Shown piece by piece: positions 1-45,838 of a stretch of 64,000 bases of DNA. This DNA is from Phycisphaerales bacterium (lineage in GTDB: Bacteria; Planctomycetota; Phycisphaerae; Phycisphaerales; UBA1924). Below the pieces are notes generated by a model. That model was not told the DNA's origin. It made no database searches and worked only from the letters and a program-made list of their open reading frames with translations. The position numbers and the translations under genes were made by a program. Position 1 is the first letter of the stretch. Each line of letters begins with the position of its first letter. The stretch lies in contig JASGKR010000001.1 of NCBI GenBank assembly GCA_047600535.1, positions 2,719,638 to 2,783,637 on the forward strand. The letters run 5' to 3'.

Positions 1-136
1 CTCGGCTGCTACGCTGAAGATCGTCGGCAGGTTCTGGGGGTACACACCCTTAGTGGTCACCAACCACAGGAACGCGTGGCGCGGGCGTACGAGGCGGCGC
101 ACACGCTGGCATGGCGGTTGCCACAGCGTGGGAATC

Positions 137-1126
137 ATGACTGCACGAGCACCCGCTGGCATCTCACCGCCTATCTCCCACACTGACATCCGCCGCTTTG
201 CCGAGGAGAAGGTCAACCTTCCCGCCGAGGACGCCAAAGAACGTCGTGCAAAGGTCAATGATCTGCGCGAGAAGCTGGCGAAGTGGATGAAGGATCATCC
301 CGACTGCGGCATCGCCAAGTCGTACCTGTCCGGAAGTCTTGCCAAGGGTACAGCTCTCCGTACTTCCAGCGACGTAGATGTGGCGCTGTACATCACGTAC
401 GACGGCGAACGCAAAGCGAGCCGGCAACTCTCCAACTGGATCGCCGAGCGCCTACGCAAGGCGTATCCACAGATGAGCCCGGACCAGATCGAGCCGCAGG
501 AATACTCCGTCAAGATCAAGTTCAAGGAGGCGGGTGTCGACGTGGACATCGTGCCCGTCTTCTACGAGGGTGACCCGCAGGACAAGGGCTGGCTGGTGTC
601 CAAGAAATCGGGTCGCTTGATGCTTACCAGCATCCCGATGCACCTCGCGTTTACGCGCAAGCGCAAGGACGCCCAGCCGCAGCATTTCGCTCAGGTCGTC
701 CGCCTCATCAAGTGGTGGGCTGCCGAGCAGAAAGCTAAGGACGCGAACTTCAGGTTCAAGTCGTTCATGGTCGAACTGATCTGCGCCCACCTGGCCGACA
801 ACGGGCAGGACTTCTCCGACTACCGGGCTGGTATGGAGGCGTTTTTCGACTACATCGTCTCTACAGGTCTGAAGAAGCGGATCGCATTCAAGGACAACTA
901 CCCGGTTACCGACCTGCCCGCGGCGATCACCGACCCCGTGCAAATCTTCGATCCGGTAAATGCCAAGAACAACGTCGCATCGCAGTACACCGATGAGCAT
1001 CGCCGCCTGATTGTTGAGGCCGCACAGGACGCACTCGACGCCCTGAACGAGGCTCACACAGCCGCCACGAAGCAGCACGCCGTCGAAATGTGGCGAGTCG
1101 TGCTCGGCCCTTCTTTCAGAGGATAA
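137..1126 (+). CDS. cGAS/DncV-like nucleotidyltransferase (CD-NTase), CBASS cyclase. The ORF extends to 53, and 137 is the first plausible ATG.
   Basis: Pol-beta NTase motif GSLAKGTALRTSSDVDVAL (G[GS]x...DhD) is present. A downstream acidic cluster VDVDIVP gives the third catalytic residue. Length is ~330 aa. The gene is immediately followed by HORMA-sized, TRIP13-like and NucC-like genes. Confidence 0.6.
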   Translation: MTARAPAGISPPISHTDIRRFAEEKVNLPAEDAKERRAKVNDLREKLAKWMKDHPDCGIAKSYLSGSLAKGTALRTSSDVDVALYITYDGERKASRQLSNWIAERLRKAYPQMSPDQIEPQEYSVKIKFKEAGVDVDIVPVFYEGDPQDKGWLVSKKSGRLMLTSIPMHLAFTRKRKDAQPQHFAQVVRLIKWWAAEQKAKDANFRFKSFMVELICAHLADNGQDFSDYRAGMEAFFDYIVSTGLKKRIAFKDNYPVTDLPAAITDPVQIFDPVNAKNNVASQYTDEHRRLIVEAAQDALDALNEAHTAATKQHAVEMWRVVLGPSFRG

Positions 1127-1129
1127 CAC

Positions 1130-1639
1130 ATGACGCAGAGTCACACGACAACGCAGACCTTTTCTCGCACTGACGCACGCTATATCGCCGGAAAAGTTGC
1201 CGCGGACCTTCGGCAGCTTTCTCAGGCGTACGGCGAGCCCAGCGAGGACCACATCGGCAAGCTGATGGGGGAACTCACTGAGTACCTTGCGGATGGGTAC
1301 CTCGACCGGGTCACCTATGGCTTTCGCAAAGGCGAGGAGTGGGTCATTGGGCTGAAGTACAGCGCAGCGGACATCGGCTCACTGACCTCTGATGATCGCT
1401 CGGGGCGGGTTCCGCGCGGGGTCGATCGAACTGGGGCTTCCTGGTATTCATTTCTCATTCTTAACAGCAAATGGAACGCGCTCACCGCAGAGCAGCGCAC
1501 GCAGTACGAGCGGGCATTGCCGATCCAGCGATCAAACGGCGCTGAACCCTCGGCCGGAGCACGCGGTTGGATTGAGGATAAGACATACTCGTCATCCGGT
1601 GGTGGCGTGCGGTGCGCGTCGGCTGGGGGTGCCACTTGA
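1130..1639 (+). CDS. HORMA-domain-like CBASS regulator (call made from size and position)
   Basis: A 169-aa ORF starts 4 nt after the CD-NTase stop and overlaps the downstream AAA+ gene. This size and position match HORMA in cdnC-HORMA-trip13-nucC operons. No motif was verified. Confidence 0.4.
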   Translation: MTQSHTTTQTFSRTDARYIAGKVAADLRQLSQAYGEPSEDHIGKLMGELTEYLADGYLDRVTYGFRKGEEWVIGLKYSAADIGSLTSDDRSGRVPRGVDRTGASWYSFLILNSKWNALTAEQRTQYERALPIQRSNGAEPSAGARGWIEDKTYSSSGGGVRCASAGGAT

Positions 1640-2589
1640 GCAGTGTCGATTTATTCGAGGACGTCGTAACGCTGCCGGACGCACGTGGTCAAGCCAACTA
1701 TGACCGGCTTGTAGGCTTGGACGACTACAAGGCACGGCTCGTAAAGGAGACTCTGCTCCTAGTCGATCCGAGCCAGCTGAGCGACTGGAACAAGAAGCAC
1801 CACAACGGACAGCTCGCGGCCGTCGAGTACTTCCACACCCGTCCGCCTCTATTCGTCCTTGCCGGTGACGTCGGCACCGGTAAGACGGCCTTGGCCCGCT
1901 CGTTCGGGAATCAAGTCGCCAAGCTGGCCAAGGTGCGGGTTGAGTTGTACACGCTGAGCCTCAACGCACGGGGGAGTGGGGCGGTCGGAGAGATGACGAG
2001 ACTCATATCTGGTGCATTTAGACAGGTACGCGAGGCCGTTGGCAAGACCCGCGGCAATGACGGCAAGGCTGGTCGTGGAATTATCTTGCTCATCGATGAA
2101 GCCGATGCGCTCGCCCAATCGCGCGAAGCAGCGCAAATGCACCATGAGGATCGAGCAGGGGTGAACGCACTGATTCGCGGCATCGACGACCTAGCAGCTG
2201 AAAGGCTTCCGATCGCGGTCGTCATGTGCACCAACCGCTTGGACGCAATTGACCCTGCCGTACGTCGACGCGCAGCTGCCGTGTTTGAATTCGCGCGCCC
2301 AAGTCGCGACCAGCGACTTGAGGTCATCAGGGCGGGACTCGCGGGTAGCGGCTTCTCCGAACGGGTGCTCGGCCAGGTTGCCGACGCCACCGGGGAGGCG
2401 ACCGGACGCGGCTACGGCTTCACCTACTCCGATCTGACCCAACGCCTTATCCCGACGGTTGTGCTCGACGCCTTTCCCGAGCGTGGCCTGGATGGTGCCC
2501 GCGCAATCGAGATCGCAAAAAGCCTTAAGCCGACTCCTCCCTTCCGTGAACAGGCGGTAGTGGCATCGCCCGGAGGACATCATGGCTGA
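1612..2589 (+). CDS. TRIP13/Pch2-like AAA+ ATPase of CBASS type III. The likely true start is TTG at 1636, overlapping the upstream stop.
   Basis: Walker A LAGDVGTGKTAL and Walker B ILLIDEADAL are present. Length is ~320 aa. The gene sits between the HORMA-like and nuclease genes. Confidence 0.65.
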   Translation: MRVGWGCHLSSVDLFEDVVTLPDARGQANYDRLVGLDDYKARLVKETLLLVDPSQLSDWNKKHHNGQLAAVEYFHTRPPLFVLAGDVGTGKTALARSFGNQVAKLAKVRVELYTLSLNARGSGAVGEMTRLISGAFRQVREAVGKTRGNDGKAGRGIILLIDEADALAQSREAAQMHHEDRAGVNALIRGIDDLAAERLPIAVVMCTNRLDAIDPAVRRRAAAVFEFARPSRDQRLEVIRAGLAGSGFSERVLGQVADATGEATGRGYGFTYSDLTQRLIPTVVLDAFPERGLDGARAIEIAKSLKPTPPFREQAVVASPGGHHG

Positions 2590-3331
2590 GAAGCCCACAC
2601 TAAAGCGGCTATTTCAGGGCGTCCAGAAGGAACTCGGCTCAAAGCTAGAGACCGCGCGAGAGGCTCTGGATCATCCTTCTTCGAAGGGCACAAAGACCGA
2701 AGACTACTGGATCGGGATGTTCCGTAATTATCTGCCGAAACGATACGACGTTCACCGTGCATTCGTGATCGACTCTAAGGATGTGCTCAGTGATCAGCTC
2801 GACATCGTCGTACATGACCGACAGTTCTCGCCTTTTGTGCTAAACCTCGACGGTGAATATTTTGTGCCTGCCGAAAGCGTCTACGCCGTACTCGAGGTCC
2901 GACAGACCATGAACGCGGCAAATGTGGAGTACGCGGCGGGAAAGATTGGGAGCGTTCGCAAGCTGCATCGGACGAGCCTGCCCATCCGCCACGCGGGCGG
3001 CGAGTACCCGGCCAAACCGTTGCACGACATCCTCGGAGCACTCGTCACTTTTGACAGCGACTGGACACCGCCATTTGGCGATGCCTTCCGGGCGGCAATT
3101 GCGAACGCACCGGCGATCGGTCGTCTCGACATGGGGTGCGCCGCCAAACAGGGCGGCTTTGAAGTAAAGTACGCACCGAACGAGCCTCCTGCAGTTGCAG
3201 CGGAGCGCTCCGAAGCCGCGCTTGCGCTGTTTCTGCTGCGGTTTATCGCGCGGCTCCAGTCCATGGCGACTGTCCCCGCCATGGACGTCCTGGCCTACGC
3301 CCAAGCGATCCCGAGGACCGATGTCCCCTGA
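2582..3331 (+). CDS. NucC-like restriction-endonuclease-fold effector nuclease
   Basis: The 249-aa protein has an N-terminal region HPSSKGTKTEDYWIGMFRNYLPKRYDVHRAFVIDSKDVLSDQLDIVVHDRQFSPFVLNLDGEYFVPAESVYAVLEVRQ. This closely resembles the NucC family, with a PD-(D/E)xK-like core IDx...D..LEV(R/K). The gene overlaps the AAA+ gene stop. Confidence 0.6.
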   Translation: MAEKPTLKRLFQGVQKELGSKLETAREALDHPSSKGTKTEDYWIGMFRNYLPKRYDVHRAFVIDSKDVLSDQLDIVVHDRQFSPFVLNLDGEYFVPAESVYAVLEVRQTMNAANVEYAAGKIGSVRKLHRTSLPIRHAGGEYPAKPLHDILGALVTFDSDWTPPFGDAFRAAIANAPAIGRLDMGCAAKQGGFEVKYAPNEPPAVAAERSEAALALFLLRFIARLQSMATVPAMDVLAYAQAIPRTDVP

Positions 3332-4232
3332 GAAGCGACCGATTAAACGACCGCCACCCACCACGGCCACCCTACGTCGACTCCTATTGAATTGGGAGCT
3401 TATCGATAGCGACGGCGGGCCGGGGACTAAGCCCGACAGTCGTGGGTCGTGGCACCTCTTCTGCCATCTGGCCGCCGCAGGCTCAATCCGTCGCCTCTCG
3501 AACGGCGGAGCCGCTTGGGTTGGAATTCACTATGACCGGCGGAAGGAGCTGTACGAAGCCGCCGTTTTCACCACCCTCTCGGGCCGTAGAGTGTCGTTAC
3601 CCTTTCGCTCGCGCGAGACCCACCGCCTGCTCGAAGAGAGTGAGCTCTGCGCCTATATGGAAGGAGCTTCACGCGGGCACATCCTCGACCGCTCGGCGAA
3701 CGATCCGGGCAACCCGACGAAGGACGACCGCCGCCAGGACTACGACCAGAACGTCAACTCGCCCAACGACGGCGGCCCAGTCTGGGAGATGTGGACGGTC
3801 AGCCGTGACATCCGCCCAGAGAACAAACTCGGCAGTTCGCTTGTCGAAGCCTACGCCGAGCTCCTGTCTGTGCTGGGAAGCAGGTTTGCGGCAGTCGTGG
3901 CCCGTGGGCGGATGGAGCCCGAGTACGGGCACCTCCGGCAGATGTGCGCCCTAATCGACGCCGGGTTCATCACACCGGAAGAAGCGATGACCGACATCGA
4001 GGCGGTGGCCATTCCGCCAGATGTGGAGCGGATTCTGCTTGAAGCCACGCCCGAGGCGTTTGTGACGGCCGCGGAGATGCTGGCGAAGAGGCGAAAGAAG
4101 CCGTGCTATTGGATGTACAGCCGAAAAGTCTCCAGCTTCGCCAGCGCCTCGCTGCTGCGCCGACTGGTGAAGACGCTGGGGCCCGCCGTCGCCCCCGAGC
4201 CGACTCGCAAATCACGGAATCGTCGCCACTAG
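3321..4232 (+). CDS. hypothetical protein, translationally coupled to the nucC-like gene
   Basis: The ATG at 3321 overlaps the nucC-like stop at 3329-3331, giving a ~303-aa product. No recognisable motifs were found. The gene is convergent with the downstream minus-strand genes. Confidence 0.45.
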   Translation: MSPEKRPIKRPPPTTATLRRLLLNWELIDSDGGPGTKPDSRGSWHLFCHLAAAGSIRRLSNGGAAWVGIHYDRRKELYEAAVFTTLSGRRVSLPFRSRETHRLLEESELCAYMEGASRGHILDRSANDPGNPTKDDRRQDYDQNVNSPNDGGPVWEMWTVSRDIRPENKLGSSLVEAYAELLSVLGSRFAAVVARGRMEPEYGHLRQMCALIDAGFITPEEAMTDIEAVAIPPDVERILLEATPEAFVTAAEMLAKRRKKPCYWMYSRKVSSFASASLLRRLVKTLGPAVAPEPTRKSRNRRH

Positions 4233-4937
4233 GTCCTCGACGATCCCGGCCTCAACCTCTGCAAAGCGACCTTTGCCCTTCTTACCACAGGCCGCCCCAC
4301 GGACGCAGATCACGTCCGCACCAGCCGCCCACAGCTCGGGCAACTGTTCCTTGGTGATCGAACCCGCCAGCCACGCTTCCTTTCCCTCGTCGTGCATGGC
4401 CTTGCACCACTTGGCGATCGCCTTCGTCTTGTGGTAGTCCAGGAGCCCGCGACCGATGCCTTTCTCAAACGTGTCGACAAGTACGCCGTCTGCTTTCGTC
4501 TTCACAGCCAATTTGATCGAGTCTTTGAGAGGCTTGAAGAAACGGTCCATTCCGTCGTCCACGAAGACGGCGGGGAAGAGCTTCTTTTTCGGGAACCAGT
4601 GCCGAACCGTCCGCACGATCTTTTCGCCCTGATAGATCGCTGCTTCTAAGGGCAACTCCGCAAGCCCGAACTTGATCAGATCGGCGCCAGCGATCGCGAC
4701 GCCGAGCGCCGCCTGGCATGCATTGGCCCGAGAGTGCTGGATCTCGCCGATGTTTGTCGAGATCTGGACCTTTGGGTACTTAGCTCTCACCTTCGCGCAG
4801 ACTTCCGCGATGTTGAGCGGGTAGGGCGTACCGAGGGCGGAGGCCGGGTATTCGACATCTGCGATCATCGCCCCACCTTCGGCGCAGGCGAGGGCCTCTA
4901 CTGGACCGCGAACGCTTACGAGAAGTCGCTGTTTCAT
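4212..4937 (-). CDS. MfnB/DUF556-like class-I aldolase-type TIM-barrel protein, (5-formylfuran-3-yl)methyl phosphate synthase family
   Basis: Motifs present are LLVSVRG...GGAMIADVEYP, GADLIKFGL, VLVDTFEKGIGRGLLDY, and WLAGSI...ADVICVRGAACG, which together resemble MfnB. Length is ~241 aa from MKQRLL. Confidence 0.5.
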   Translation of the reverse strand: MKQRLLVSVRGPVEALACAEGGAMIADVEYPASALGTPYPLNIAEVCAKVRAKYPKVQISTNIGEIQHSRANACQAALGVAIAGADLIKFGLAELPLEAAIYQGEKIVRTVRHWFPKKKLFPAVFVDDGMDRFFKPLKDSIKLAVKTKADGVLVDTFEKGIGRGLLDYHKTKAIAKWCKAMHDEGKEAWLAGSITKEQLPELWAAGADVICVRGAACGKKGKGRFAEVEAGIVEDLVATIP

Positions 4938-6571
4938 TTCTTTTTCTTCTTTGTGACCTTCTTTGCCGCCTTCTTGGCCTTCGCGCCTTTCTTGCGCTCG
5001 ATGTGGCAGACCCGCACGTCGAAGAATTTCGCACGTAGCGCGGCGCATCCATCGTAAAGACTAAGCCGACTGAAAAACGGCAGATCATCCGGCAGCGTCT
5101 TCGTGGGCGCATCGGCGATCGCGTAGACGATCCGTAGCTGCCGGGTTGGCACGCCCGTACTGAAGTCCTTCCACGGTGCTTTCGACTTCCACTTTGCCGG
5201 GATCTTCGCCAGGACCGCATCACGGAACGGCTGCGACCCGGCAATAAGCTGGGCCGAGTTCTCCCCCTGCTTGATGAGCGCACTGAAGGTCTGGGAGCTC
5301 TTCCACGCCTTTACATGGATGAAATGACCATCCTCCGAAACGAGATCGCAGGCCTCTACGGCATTGCCATCGGCATCGACTCCCTTACGGTCTAGTGCAC
5401 AGAACCGGTCGGGCTGCTTCTTGGCGACACCGTCGTTGTACTTGCCTTCGCCCCCGCTTCCTGTCCATGGGGGTAGGTAGTTGGGGTCGCTCTCTATGTC
5501 GATGTCGATGAAGGCGGCCTTGCAGTCGTCGATGTACTGTTGATCCAGCCGGTACCACTTCCCGTCCTTTAGCGCATACGGCTTCCCGTTGTAGTGCGTC
5601 TGAAACGTCGCGAGGTGTGACAGCGGCTGCTCAACGACAACGGACCCTTTTTCGTGAAGGCCACGGACGTTTAGTTGGTCGAGCTTGAGAGAGGCCCCGT
5701 GAGCCGCCCTCGCCCCAGCGACAATCGCTTCGACGTCTAGGTCCTCTAGCGGCTCCCATTGGTCGTCGGTCCATGAAACCTCGAAACTGTGAACAGAGCG
5801 CCAATCCTCCGCCTCCGGCAGGAAGAGGCCGATCTCTTTGCACGAAACAGGCTTGAGCGCGGCAAGCAACTTGCCGTCAAGTGCCTGCGTTACCGTTGCG
5901 TCAACGACGCGCTCGTAGCGTTTGAGGGCGGCAAGTCTTGCCTTCGGTTTCTTCGCGATTGCCGCAACAAGGCCATCGCAGAGCAATTGCAGTTCCGTAA
6001 AAGGGATGATGCCGCCGATCATGCAGGAGGTCGCGCCCGTAATTCTCTTGCCGAGCGCGGGATCGTTGCTCTTTCCACCTAGCCGGTGCACGTGGTCTCG
6101 CGCTCGCTGAAGCGGAAACGTCGCTAAGTCGCCCGGCTTGCTCGCGATCTGGAGCTTGTGAAGACCGTCGAACCCGACCGCCTTCGACTCGATCTCCTTG
6201 ATCGTGTTTGCCTCCAGCAGACGGCAAGCGGCTTCGAGTCCGAAGTCCTCCTGCACGAAAGTCTTTTCCAAAGCCATGAAGCCTTGACCGTACGTCAAAG
6301 CGCAAACTCGCCCGGATGTGGTCTTGAGAATGACGACAAGTGAGTTCGAGCGGTTGAGGACTGTCTTTGGCTTGGGGATGGCGCAATGCGGGAGGACATA
6401 CTCCAGCCAAGAGGGGACAGTGGTTTTGTCGCTTTGAAAGTACGCCGTAACGGGGAACGTCACTCCGGTGACCGCGACCTGTGTATATCCGCCCTTACCC
6501 AAGCTCGACGGTGCCATCGCATCGTCGAGGTTCTTCACCGAGTCTTTGAACACGTAGATGGTGTACTTCAT
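4934..6571 (-). CDS. hypothetical 546-aa protein with poly-lysine C-terminal tail
   Basis: A long ORF runs from MKYTIYVFKD. The C-terminus is AKAKKAAKKVTKKKKK. A possible nuclease-like D..ED..IHVK motif lies near residue 420. The 4-nt overlap with the upstream gene suggests an operon. Confidence 0.5.
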   Translation of the reverse strand: MKYTIYVFKDSVKNLDDAMAPSSLGKGGYTQVAVTGVTFPVTAYFQSDKTTVPSWLEYVLPHCAIPKPKTVLNRSNSLVVILKTTSGRVCALTYGQGFMALEKTFVQEDFGLEAACRLLEANTIKEIESKAVGFDGLHKLQIASKPGDLATFPLQRARDHVHRLGGKSNDPALGKRITGATSCMIGGIIPFTELQLLCDGLVAAIAKKPKARLAALKRYERVVDATVTQALDGKLLAALKPVSCKEIGLFLPEAEDWRSVHSFEVSWTDDQWEPLEDLDVEAIVAGARAAHGASLKLDQLNVRGLHEKGSVVVEQPLSHLATFQTHYNGKPYALKDGKWYRLDQQYIDDCKAAFIDIDIESDPNYLPPWTGSGGEGKYNDGVAKKQPDRFCALDRKGVDADGNAVEACDLVSEDGHFIHVKAWKSSQTFSALIKQGENSAQLIAGSQPFRDAVLAKIPAKWKSKAPWKDFSTGVPTRQLRIVYAIADAPTKTLPDDLPFFSRLSLYDGCAALRAKFFDVRVCHIERKKGAKAKKAAKKVTKKKKK

Positions 6572-6680
6572 GGGGTGCTGCCTTGAATACATTCCGAACC
6601 TACGACTGGGAGCAGGCCGGCCGTGACCGCACAACACTAAACCTTGCCGCGGCCGATTGCTTCACAAAACGCAAAACTAT

Positions 6681-7508
6681 CTAGTCGGCCTTTTTAATGA
6701 CGCGCCGCACCCACTGCTCTAGCTCGCGACCCTCATATTTCCCCAAACGAAATTGCCGCTGTTGTACGTAGCGGTTCGCGGGGTCGCTGAGATAGCTCGT
6801 GGTAATCATCAAGCCCTTGGTCGCGCCAAAGTCGTCACGAGCCGCGGATAGCTCTCTCACCTTATCGAGGCTGACCGCACGTGTCGGACCATATTTCTTG
6901 GCTTGCCAAACACTCTTGACTGCACCGAGAATTCGGTCGTTTCGCACACCCACGACATCAATTCCGTCATCGCCTCCTTCTTTTGTGATTTGAACTTTAA
7001 AACCATCTTCCTCGAGAAGTTGTCCGATGAGTTCCTCAAACTGACGCCATGAGAGTGCGTGCAAGCTACGCCCAGCGAGAAGGTGATCTCGAGCCAGTCG
7101 AAGTACGCTCGGCGCAAGGCCGATCCACATCGGGATTTTTGGCGGCGCGACGAGGCCGGTATCGGGCTTCCACAACTTGGGCCTGCCGAGAGGGCGTACT
7201 TCCAGGATGGACTCTTTTGGCCTCCCGAGCTGCAGTAGCCACGATCGAATTTGAGCCAATAAGAGATCTGGGGAAGCCTCCCGTTTTCGTTCGACTTCTG
7301 CTTGTCCCCGGAAATCCCAGACGTTGACGTCGAAGTCACCGGACATCGACCGTAGTGCATTGAATAGATGACCGATGGCTTCGGGGCGCTGCTTTCTACT
7401 GAACCCCTCCACAAATTTCACCAGACCACCGTCCACCGATTTCGGGCTGCGTGCCGTGCGGGCTGTTTCGATGAGTGATACGGCTCTCTTGGCGACTTCC
7501 TGACGCAT
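6681..7508 (-). CDS. Mrr-cat (type IV restriction endonuclease N-terminal-like) domain protein
   Basis: The C-terminal half is WRQFEELIGQLLEEDGFKVQITKEGGDDGIDVVG...VWQAKKYG...KGLMITTSYLS. This fits the Mrr_cat PD-(D/E)xK fold with DG.D...Q.K. Confidence 0.55.
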   Translation of the reverse strand: MRQEVAKRAVSLIETARTARSPKSVDGGLVKFVEGFSRKQRPEAIGHLFNALRSMSGDFDVNVWDFRGQAEVERKREASPDLLLAQIRSWLLQLGRPKESILEVRPLGRPKLWKPDTGLVAPPKIPMWIGLAPSVLRLARDHLLAGRSLHALSWRQFEELIGQLLEEDGFKVQITKEGGDDGIDVVGVRNDRILGAVKSVWQAKKYGPTRAVSLDKVRELSAARDDFGATKGLMITTSYLSDPANRYVQQRQFRLGKYEGRELEQWVRRVIKKAD

Positions 7509-8561
7509 ACACACCTCGATTCAAGGCCAGCCCTGACAATCTACGACGGAAGCTTAAGATCTACTGACCTCGGATAGATTTAGTTGCGAGCATTTTACTG
7601 GGGCGTGCCGCTTACCTGGGAGCCTGGGACCGTTAATGGCGAAGCGGTCGAACCGGCCGATCAGTGGGCGCGTGACTTTAACCGAGCCACCGCACCGGCG
7701 GCTCAGCGAGGGTCGGTGCGGCATCAAGGCAGTGCTTCTGGGGAAAGGACTCGCTGCGGGCGACCGCTCACTGGTAGCTTGAAGCACGGGTTTCTTTCTG
7801 CACGTTCCGCGCTTGCACTCTGCAAGATTTGGTGTAGGCTCATTGGCAGTAACGGCCCACCCACTTCAGCCAGGAGCCTCGACTGCGGGCTTCTTTGAAG
7901 GGCCAGCGAAACCGGACTCGGAACCGGGAAAGAGTGATCCGAGCGGCAAAGGGGCAGCCAGACCCGCCGAATGAACTGTGACTGGCCCGCCAGCGAGCGG
8001 AACACGCGCAAATCGGAGGCATTGGTGTCGAGCATTCGGGCGCGTGCCCGGGCACCTTGTCGTCTTTGTCCGTTTCGCTCGGAACGGGCGTGGTGAACGC
8101 TCTGCGGGGTACGCCTCCGCCTGCCAGACGTTCCGGTGTGTCTTCGCGCGTTGAAGGCCGAAGACTCGTTGGAGCGTGCGATGCGAATTCCGAATTGGAT
8201 AGTGAGCCTGCTGAGTGTGGAGTGTGAAGCGTGCCGCACGACATCAAATGGGACACGGGTACGAACACGACTGAGGGTCGGGCCGTTCCCGATCATGGCG
8301 TGCTGCCTCGCCCTGTATCTGGTGGCCAAGACCATCGTGAAAGCGTGCGCGGATGCGTCTCTGCCTTAACGGGGGCGGGCGGGGCCCTCCCCGCCATCGC
8401 ATTGGCTCCTGCCCGAATAACCCCCACTCCCTGACGGTCGGGGCTCGTGATAAGGAAGGATGCACCCGTGAACGGATATCCGGAATAAACGGAACGGCTG
8501 CCGGAACCCCCGCCTCCCGCGCTGAAGTTGCGCCTTTGGGTAAACGAAGACGCTTCGGCGT

Positions 8562-8688
8562 AGTCGTGAGTGCTGAGTCCTGAGTCTCGAGTGAAGCCCT
8601 GAGTTCGGAGTCGTGAGTAGCAAGACTCCCCACCCCCCTCCCCCCCTTCCTTCCCCCACTCAGCACTCACGACTCAGCACTCAGGACT
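8562..8688. repeat. Imperfect long inverted repeat: ~8 tandem NNTGAGT units, a C-rich spacer (ccccacccccctcccccccttccttccccc), then ~4 ACTCAGN units
   Basis: Seen directly in the sequence. agtcgtgagtgctgagt at 8562-8578 is perfectly complementary to actcagcactcacgact at 8658-8674. The repeated 7-nt units allow several pairing registers. The element lies ~60 nt upstream of the 8747 ORF. Confidence 0.6.
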
Positions 8689-8746
8689 CTTCGTTCCTCT
8701 GCTCAACACTTCCCGTTTCTCCTCAACTTCCAGAAAGGACTCTCCC

Positions 8747-45693: not shown

Positions 45694-45768
45694 CAAGGCG
45701 CAGCGCAGCCTCAGTAGCGCGTCTGGTTCGGGACCAGAAGGTCGGAGGTTCAAATCCTCCCACCCTGG
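45694..45768 (+). pseudogene. degenerate tRNA-Pro(CGG)-like element
   Basis: The anticodon arm is tctgg-TTCGGGA-ccaga and the T arm is ggagg-TTCAAAT-cctcc. A D arm gcgc/gcgc is present but the D loop lacks GG and U8 is absent. The acceptor stems pair at only 5 of 7 positions. Confidence 0.3.
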
Positions 45769-45838
45769 CTGCAGCGCAACCACACAGCGCGTTTGACTGG
45801 GGATCAAAAGGTCGTGGGTTCAAATCCCGCCACCACGA
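45765..45838 (+). pseudogene. degenerate tRNA-Pro(GGG)-like element, tandem to the previous one
   Basis: The anticodon arm is tttga-CTGGGGA-tcaaa. The variable loop is aggtc. The T arm is gtggg-TTCAAAT-cccgc. The acceptor pairs at 4 of 7 positions. The architecture is the same as the neighbouring element. Confidence 0.3.

Follow-up and report, generated by a model that had tools for sequence, protein, structure and literature searches.

A candidate MfnB-like/X6 gene cassette and a predicted DUF6119 nuclease in a mosaic defence region of a Phycisphaerales bacterium

A 64,000-nucleotide stretch of a Phycisphaerales genome (contig JASGKR010000001.1; hereafter the window) carries, next to a cyclic oligonucleotide-based antiphage signalling system (CBASS), three minus-strand genes whose relationship to each other and to phage defence is the question raised by this locus. 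Gene A encodes a TIM-barrel enzyme resembling MfnB, gene B a large protein of the DUF6119/TIGR04141 family, and gene C a protein with an Mrr_cat nuclease domain. A first-pass annotation of the sequence had offered two readings, in which the three genes form a single restriction-like defence module or in which gene A reflects methanofuran and tetrahydromethanopterin (H4MPT)-linked one-carbon (C1) metabolism. The explanation that we favour, with moderate confidence, is a mosaic island with separate units: a DUF6119 nuclease gene, an unlinked Mrr gene, and a mobile cassette of gene A and an orphan gene, X6, that would serve DNA-degrading effectors. The defence reading of the region as a whole is supported, and the CBASS and Mrr genes found here are ordinary. 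On the strength of comparative genomics, what appears to be new is the nuclease reading of DUF6119 and the occurrence of the MfnB-like/X6 cassette within nuclease systems. In the literature searched, PF04476, UPF0264, MfnB, DUF6119, TIGR04141, and DUF3326 are nowhere tied to phage defence.

Units of the region beside CBASS

The gene layout (Table 1) bears out the setting that had been described. A type III CBASS with all four canonical genes in the canonical order (CD-NTase, HORMA, TRIP13, NucC) occupies positions 53-3331 of the plus strand, and the three minus-strand genes are real, as judged from their open reading frames (ORFs) and from profile matches to PF04476 (gene A), PF19614 and TIGR04141 (gene B) and PF04471 (gene C). 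These three genes had been reported to abut or overlap each other. This holds for genes A and B, where the gene B stop codon (TGA, 4934-4936) and the gene A start codon (ATG, 4935-4937) fall within one ATGA sequence, but not for genes B and C, which are separated by 109 nt (6572-6680). A fourth gene, X6, had been overlooked. The NCBI annotation gives it only 191 amino acids (QM783_13140), whereas 27 aligned homologs favour a form of 303 amino acids, whose ATG overlaps the NucC stop codon by 11 nt and whose 3ˊ end extends 21 nt into gene A (4212-4232). In this longer form, X6 is the fifth gene of the CBASS operon.

Table 1. Features of the CBASS-proximal part of the window
Feature	Positions	Strand	Support
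CBASS CD-NTase (cyclase), first operon gene	53..1126	+	PADLOC Cyclase PDLC00808 E 1.1e-130; Pfam SMODS
Bacterial HORMA protein	1130..1639	+	PF18138 E 3.1e-41; PADLOC HORMA E 5.8e-53
TRIP13-like AAA ATPase	1612..2589	+	PADLOC TRIP13 E 3.2e-122
NucC endonuclease effector (DUF6602)	2582..3331	+	PADLOC NucC effector E 4.4e-92; PF20247
X6, orphan protein, 303 aa	3321..4232	+	Long form backed by 27 aligned homologs
Gene A, MfnB-like TIM-barrel enzyme, 241 aa, ATG 4937	4212..4937	-	PF04476 4HFCP_synth E 1.1e-38
Codon of gene A Glu29 (DVE, not DVK) at the position of the MfnB Schiff-base Lys27	4851..4853	-	Profile alignment to MJ1099, PDB 4rc1
Overlap of the gene B stop with the gene A start (ATGA), where the block in common with L159 ends	4934..4937	-	Sequence; blastn
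Gene B, DUF6119/TIGR04141, 545 aa, Lys-rich tail	4934..6571	-	PF19614 E 3.4e-95; TIGR04141 E 7.7e-91
Segment with the predicted nuclease active site of gene B, D394...E406-A-C-D409...H419-V-K421	5309..5392	-	Columns invariant in 41 sequences
Gene C, Mrr_cat nuclease-domain protein, 277 aa	6681..7514	-	PF04471 E 2.8e-23, residues 152-267

Two related loci, L159 and L067, expose the boundaries between these units. By blastn, positions 167-4931 of the window align with positions 564-5331 of L159 at 88.8% identity over 4774 nt, and this common block, which comprises CBASS, X6, and gene A, extends to the start codon of gene A. Past this point, L159 carries on the plus strand (5425-6663) a different DUF6119 gene whose product is 46% identical to that of gene B and which has the opposite orientation. 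This copy stops after residue 416, with the ExxD motif present and the HxK part gone, and is probably a truncated remnant. L067 has the convergent arrangement of the window, with CBASS at 73% and DUF6119 at 76% nucleotide identity, but the positions of X6 and gene A are taken by genes for a 242-amino-acid unknown protein, a methylase, a 275-amino-acid unknown protein, and a terminase-like protein. The Mrr gene is found in neither relative. The start codon of gene A is exactly the site of a recombination breakpoint, which separates gene A from gene B. From this comparison, the unit inherited in this lineage consists of CBASS, X6, and gene A, with the X6/gene A cassette occupying a position between CBASS and DUF6119 that is prone to gene exchange.

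Gene C carries the Mrr_cat domain that had been predicted for it (82.6 bits against a cut-off of 21), includes a GDDGID...VWQAKK motif in its translation, and matches the PADLOC models PDC-S02 (E 6.6e-12) and mREase_IV (E 3.6e-11). It is probably an unlinked, modification-dependent nuclease of a type IV-like kind. The GC content of its segment (0.55-0.56) is the lowest of the island, which, together with its absence from the relatives, indicates that the Mrr gene was acquired separately. A single three-gene restriction-like module of Mrr_cat, DUF6119, and MfnB-like genes would account for their common strand, their close spacing, the ATGA overlap, and the presence of two nuclease-type proteins. 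However, we consider this very improbable, as the neighbourhood data contradict it. No Mrr homolog was found in 72 related loci searched, gene C stands 109 nt ahead of gene B in a segment of different GC content, L159 and L067 have the remaining genes in common with the window but not Mrr, and the block of common DNA ends where gene A meets gene B. It had also been suggested that the combination, if defensive, would be an undescribed one. This is accurate for the adjacency of the MfnB-like and DUF6119 genes, which recurs in 14 of the 130 non-identical loci surveyed below and is undescribed in the literature searched, but the Mrr part is not recurrent.

Across positions 1-8000, GC content is 0.55-0.63, compared with 0.65-0.68 beyond, which fits a horizontally acquired island. 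An ORF-poor stretch follows gene C (7515-8700) and contains, at 8562-8688, an imperfect inverted repeat of 32 nt (84% complementarity, arms 63 nt apart) made of ACTCAGCACTCA(C/G)G units. The repeat lies near the return of GC content to the genome level and may mark an island boundary. Elsewhere in the window, at 45694-45830 on the plus strand, a partial tRNA-like match (37.9 bits, model positions 9-63) comes immediately after a tRNA-Pro (CGG) and could be the remnant attachment site of an integrated element.

Gene A, X6, and their recurrent neighbours

Gene A belongs to the PF04476 family (133.8 bits against a cut-off of 22.4), with residues 42-269 of its long ORF aligned to positions 1-223 of the 228-position profile. 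The NCBI Prokaryotic Genome Annotation Pipeline (PGAP) names its product '(5-formylfuran-3-yl)methyl phosphate synthase'. Scores against the NCBIfam equivalogs for MfnB are far below their cut-offs (117.3 against 304 for NF002575 and 105.4 against 341 for NF002573). A profile built from 26 close homologs of gene A aligns with MJ1099 (PDB 4rc1) over residues 5-239 (E 6.4e-33), and in this alignment D27, K89, D155, and K159 of gene A correspond to Asp25, Lys85, Asp151, and Lys155 of MfnB and are invariant. The last of these MfnB residues has been named as catalytic (PMC11365854). The position of Lys27, which is the Schiff-base lysine of MfnB (PMC6604932), is occupied by Glu in all 26 close homologs and in 60 of 62 genome-derived members of the clade. 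The same position is Lys in each of three controls, namely MJ1099, the Phyllobacterium MfnB, and a Streptomyces homolog.

Because the Schiff-base lysine is lost (Lys27 to Glu29), the gene A protein, judged from its sequence, is not a synthase of 4-(hydroxymethyl)-2-furancarboxaldehyde phosphate (4-HFC-P). The equivalog scores and the loss of Lys27 together mark the PGAP name as an over-annotation, which is likely to be systematic across many metagenome-assembled genomes (MAGs). As a result of this mis-annotation, many uncultured lineages could wrongly be credited with methanofuran biosynthesis.

Membership in PF04476 and the PGAP name are what a genuine MfnB acting in planctomycete C1 metabolism would lead one to expect, and H4MPT genes are known in Planctomycetes. 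This reading is nevertheless scarcely credible. In addition to the substitution and the low scores, the clade is present in Omnitrophota, Elusimicrobia, Bacteroidota, Ignavibacteria, and others, and no C1, methanofuran, H4MPT, or mfn family is found among the recurrent annotated neighbour clusters of the MfnB-like gene in 130 loci. By comparison, the genuine bacterial MfnB of Phyllobacterium, which served as a positive control, has fae, pqqE, and dihydroneopterin aldolase genes as neighbours. The methanofuran alternative put forward at first is thus refuted.

The clade to which gene A belongs is compact. Its members share 50-85% identity (67% mean column identity) across more than 20 bacterial lineages and one Methanoregula archaeon, and more than 100 homologs are 60-85% identical to gene A. 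No match exists in viral contigs or PHROGs, so that the gene does not appear to be phage-borne, and plasmids of cultured bacteria hold only distant relatives of the true MfnB type (at most 32% identity). Long 'MfnB-like' ORFs of 334-493 amino acids were considered as possible fusions and rejected as ORF-extension artefacts. Literature matches for 'DUF556' proved irrelevant, comprising DUF5565 and a table entry for Imm49.

To place the enzyme in context, an alignment-based scan for the MfnB-like family yielded 62 species-representative genomes, which span over 20 lineages, and a metagenome scan gave 254 relatives, for which 80 loci were retrieved. ORFs were called in all loci and clustered, and representatives were annotated, resulting in 130 non-identical loci whose neighbours within 6 kb were recorded (Table 2). 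A subset of 70 well-flanked loci has at least 2 kb on each side. In 48 of these 70, Septu, CBASS II or III, Gabija, DUF6119, or one of two further, nuclease-like families (c28 and c17hel) lies within 6 kb. Taking the figure quoted in one review, that anti-phage genes make up about 1.5% of bacterial genes (PMC13434031), chance would yield far fewer. The MfnB-like gene typically overlaps its partner or lies 0-40 nt from it. Partner types are dispersed over the MfnB-like tree, which indicates repeated shuffling, and the same partners were seen again in an independent metagenome sample.

Table 2. Neighbours of the MfnB-like gene in 130 non-identical loci (adjacent, within 150 bp of that gene)
Neighbour	Loci within 6 kb	Adjacent
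PtuA (Septu)	32	22
DUF3326	22	1
DUF6119	17	14
c18, 394-aa unknown	17	15
X6	16	10
AdoMet_dc	14	0
Pyridoxal-phosphate (PLP) decarboxylase	12	1
Nucleoside-deoxyribosyltransferase-like	12	9
SAVED-HNH effector (CBASS II)	11	1
c17hel, helicase family	7	2
c28, PDC-S71-like family	5	5
NucC	5	1
Gabija	2	0

The steadiest partner of the MfnB-like gene is X6. Only 29 X6 homologs were recovered among 5.8 billion proteins. Of these, 11 are on contigs equal in length to contigs with MfnB-like matches, and one pair has neighbouring locus tags (PHYC_02051/02052). When four clusters were looked up starting from X6, a PF04476 gene was found in all four, and three of these clusters contained X6, the MfnB-like gene, PtuA, PtuB, a decarboxylase, and DUF3326. 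A search of 1.84 billion cluster representatives with an X6 profile returned 96 matches, mostly fragments, and the longer ones had no informative extra domain. No structural match to X6 was obtained. Its best viral fold match, a 76-amino-acid Tad2-like domain (E 0.077), is too weak to use. In the related locus L154, a fragment of the MfnB-like gene (165 amino acids) and a full copy lie on either side of X6 (4906-5403 and 6890-7615), suggesting recent duplication or recombination at the cassette.

One conserved cluster of MfnB-like and Septu genes is found in relatives L044 (10001-15360), L155 (6001-11450), L153 (456-6891), and L154 (5632-11386). Its order is MfnB-like, PtuA, PtuB, either AdoMet_dc or a PLP decarboxylase of the ornithine/diaminopimelate/arginine type, and DUF3326, often with X6 as the terminal gene. 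Septu-linked clusters in general carry one or the other of these decarboxylases at the same position. DUF3326 is a domain of PavB, which belongs to a polyamine pathway (bioRxiv 10.64898/2026.06.12.731819). A search of the literature for a combination of Septu with polyamine-type genes gave nothing relevant, and these loci therefore point to an undescribed gene cluster of a Septu-plus-polyamine type. The window itself has neither the decarboxylase and DUF3326 neighbours nor the nucleoside-deoxyribosyltransferase-like neighbours, and only X6 is present.

Several other families were seen beside the enzyme. The c18 protein (L017 5036-6220, L063 8799-9983, L016 8762-9943, and about 12 metagenome loci) is 72-80% identical between distant lineages, and its gene lies immediately upstream of the MfnB-like gene in divergent orientation to the Septu-polyamine operon. 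Pfam, PHROG, and PDB sequences gave no match to c18, and a suspected resemblance of its C-terminus to nucleoside deoxyribosyltransferases is unsupported (hhalign 0.2%, Pfam and PDB empty). Likewise, E-x-x-D...H-x-K strings had suggested that c28 (about 600 amino acids) and c17hel (about 1000 amino acids) share the DUF6119 nuclease domain, but hmmsearch and hhalign comparisons with that domain gave no support (probability 1.8% and 0.5%). L003 (3508-6195, minus strand), L004, and L005 encode an 895-amino-acid protein with diadenylate-cyclase (DAC) and ADP-ribosylglycohydrolase domains. Its gene adjoins one for a NucC-like DUF6602 protein, and a type II CBASS (SAVED, JAB, E1) lies a few kilobases away.

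A number of observations weigh against a defence role for the MfnB-like enzyme. In a Pirellulales clade, the gene occurs alone in the company of ordinary genes, which encode a subtilase, an extracytoplasmic function (ECF) sigma factor, NmrA, HAD, and RtcB, so the enzyme can do without a defence partner. Recognised partners are missing from 22 of the 70 well-flanked loci, and all loci derive from MAGs or metagenomes. Dense packing in islands can mimic operons. No PADLOC model matches gene A, X6, or gene B/DUF6119. Septu, CBASS, and Gabija are known to function without such an enzyme, and thus an accessory role is not required.

These points bear on the alternative that the MfnB-like gene, alone or together with X6, has no immune role but is a mobile passenger of genomic islands with a metabolic or house-cleaning function, its defence neighbours reflecting island architecture and nothing else. 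The lone Pirellulales copies and the lack of PADLOC matches are as this alternative would have it, and so are the serine recombinases and IS3 elements near the gene in several loci and the 67% mean column identity, which is unusually high for immune proteins. Against this, the neighbours are specific families (Septu, the rare DUF6119, and CBASS with nuclease effectors), whereas islands are dominated by genes for restriction-modification, toxin-antitoxin, or CRISPR systems. The gene also lies inside operons with overlapping or near-touching reading frames, and identical partners recur in the independent metagenome sample. We consider a passive rider of this kind quite unlikely.

Gene B as a predicted nuclease

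Gene B matches PF19614 (320.1 bits against a cut-off of 27) over profile positions 2-523 of 524, as well as TIGR04141 (305.1 bits against 35). Its Lys-rich tail (...ERKKGAKAKKAAKKVTKKKKK) is as first noted, except that the protein has 545 rather than 546 amino acids when read from the ATG at 6571. The longest ORF has 567 amino acids and starts from a GTG at 6637. The family has no solved relative by sequence and is undescribed in the literature searched.

The nuclease-like D..ED..IHVK motif recognised at the outset is real. Residues D394, E406, D409, and K421, which lie within a ...VEACDL...FIHVK... context, are invariant among 41 sequences of the family. In a structure model of gene B, the invariant residues are located on strands 390-422, followed by a helix at 426-445. 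Fold matches give the protein the restriction-endonuclease-like core of the PD-(D/E)xK superfamily, and the four residues would be the catalytic residues of a predicted nuclease. The top fold match of gene B is the DNA-binding protein RdgC, which suggests that the modelled protein might also have a DNA-binding part. Taken together, these features would be consistent with DUF6119 proteins that bind and cut DNA.

When six loci were looked up starting from DUF6119, none had an MfnB-like neighbour. Among them is L067, whose DUF6119 protein is 84% identical to gene B. The surroundings in these look-ups include a HEPN_AbiV gene with a PIN gene; a gene of the MvaI_BcnI restriction-enzyme family with a methylase and a zeta toxin; and an N6 methylase with a kinase and an SNF2 helicase. 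With DUF6119 the only representative of this gene set in all six cases and several surroundings of a defence type, DUF6119 is most likely a self-sufficient effector or nuclease gene. A seventh relative, P0123, is on a contig equal in length to those of an MfnB-like match and an X6 match. A query of genome contigs with a single DUF6119 protein found nothing.

The co-location of genes A and B raises the possibility that DUF6119 and a downstream MfnB-like gene constitute a genuine system of two genes, to which X6 can be added as a third. Through synthesis or breakdown of a ligand, the enzyme would then control the DUF6119 nuclease, and the ATGA overlap would reflect a need for the two genes to be expressed together. 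The two genes are adjacent mostly on the same strand with an overlap or fewer than 100 nt between them, and the trio of DUF6119, MfnB-like gene, and X6 is present in the window, L018, L031, and L095. The DUF6119 copies linked to the enzyme are deeply divergent (mutually only 24-38% identical) and are spread across one major branch of the family, so that the pairing would be old or repeated. L159, the closest relative, has its different DUF6119 gene beside the same MfnB-like gene. However, the enzyme is absent from all six DUF6119-anchored look-ups, L067 included, about 87% of the MfnB-like loci lack DUF6119, and the DNA block shared with L159 breaks between genes A and B. The adjacency is therefore enriched but not obligatory, and we judge the two-gene system to be unlikely.

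A related proposal, that the two genes form an obligate toxin/immunity or toxin-antitoxin pair, does not agree with the finding that DUF6119 mostly occurs without the enzyme. The corresponding test for co-variation was negative, as MfnB-like proteins that are 58-85% identical stand beside DUF6119 partners that are 24-84% identical.

Possible function and comparison with known systems

Under the mosaic-island explanation that we favour, the window would hold the right-hand part of a horizontally acquired defence island. Gene A and X6 would form a mobile cassette inserted between CBASS and the convergent DUF6119 gene, with X6 translationally coupled to the former and gene A linked to the latter through ATGA. 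The MfnB-like enzyme, probably together with X6, might convert a small phosphorylated sugar derived from a triose or pentose phosphate, using chemistry that does not involve the MfnB Lys27 and perhaps proceeds through K159 or K89. In this way, it might act as a metabolic accessory to DNA-degrading effectors. In a biosynthetic version, a small molecule would be built, as suggested by the operons with AdoMet_dc or PLP decarboxylase and DUF3326. In a catabolic version, nucleotide-derived sugar phosphates would be removed, as suggested by the nucleoside-deoxyribosyltransferase-like neighbours.

A bolder proposal, which we offer tentatively and with some doubt, is that the MfnB-like protein and X6 are a new anti-phage component, a pair that converts a small molecule and is teamed with DNA-degrading effectors. 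The pair might destroy sugar phosphates released by DNA breakdown so that the phage cannot recycle nucleotides, which would fit the nucleoside-deoxyribosyltransferase-like neighbours. Alternatively, with the decarboxylases and DUF3326, it might build a metabolite that resembles a polyamine or a furan and has an antiviral or regulatory function in Septu-type systems. If true, a barrel that is class-I-aldolase-like and lacks the Schiff-base lysine would be added to the known components of bacterial and archaeal immunity, and DUF6119/TIGR04141 and the orphan X6 would gain a first lead to their functions.

Compared with MfnB (MJ1099; PDB 4rc1/4u9p), gene A shares the PF04476 family and the TIM barrel and keeps the C-terminal AGS and RGAAC segments, which are phosphate-binding by our own reading of the alignment. 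In contrast to MfnB, its clade has an invariant Glu in place of Lys27, scores at about one-third of the equivalog cut-offs, and is a compact, horizontally spread group found in defence operons rather than with C1 or methanofuran genes.

Relative to the type III CBASS, the operon described here has X6 as an extra, translationally coupled fifth gene and the MfnB-like gene in convergent orientation. Without a PADLOC match, X6 and gene A are not among the catalogued CBASS accessory genes. In comparison with Septu (PtuA/PtuB), the MfnB-like gene is first in, or divergent from, the PtuA-PtuB operon in about one-quarter of the related loci, and this operon adds AdoMet_dc or a PLP decarboxylase and DUF3326, whereas the window has no Septu genes.

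Gene C resembles Mrr and other type IV modification-dependent restriction enzymes, including PDC-S02, in having an Mrr_cat domain with the GDDGID...QAK motif. It differs in that its N-terminal 150 amino acids are without a match and in that it is unlinked to the other genes. Finally, gene B is a full-length member of the DUF6119/TIGR04141 'sporadically distributed protein' family with all family-invariant residues present, although the Lys-rich tail is confined to gene B and some relatives. This family has had no described function, whereas here it gains a predicted nuclease core, the RdgC fold match, and a defence-type context. Among the closest known systems are the PD-(D/E)xK defence nucleases HamA (Hachiman), Shedu SduA, Can2, and the type II restriction enzymes.

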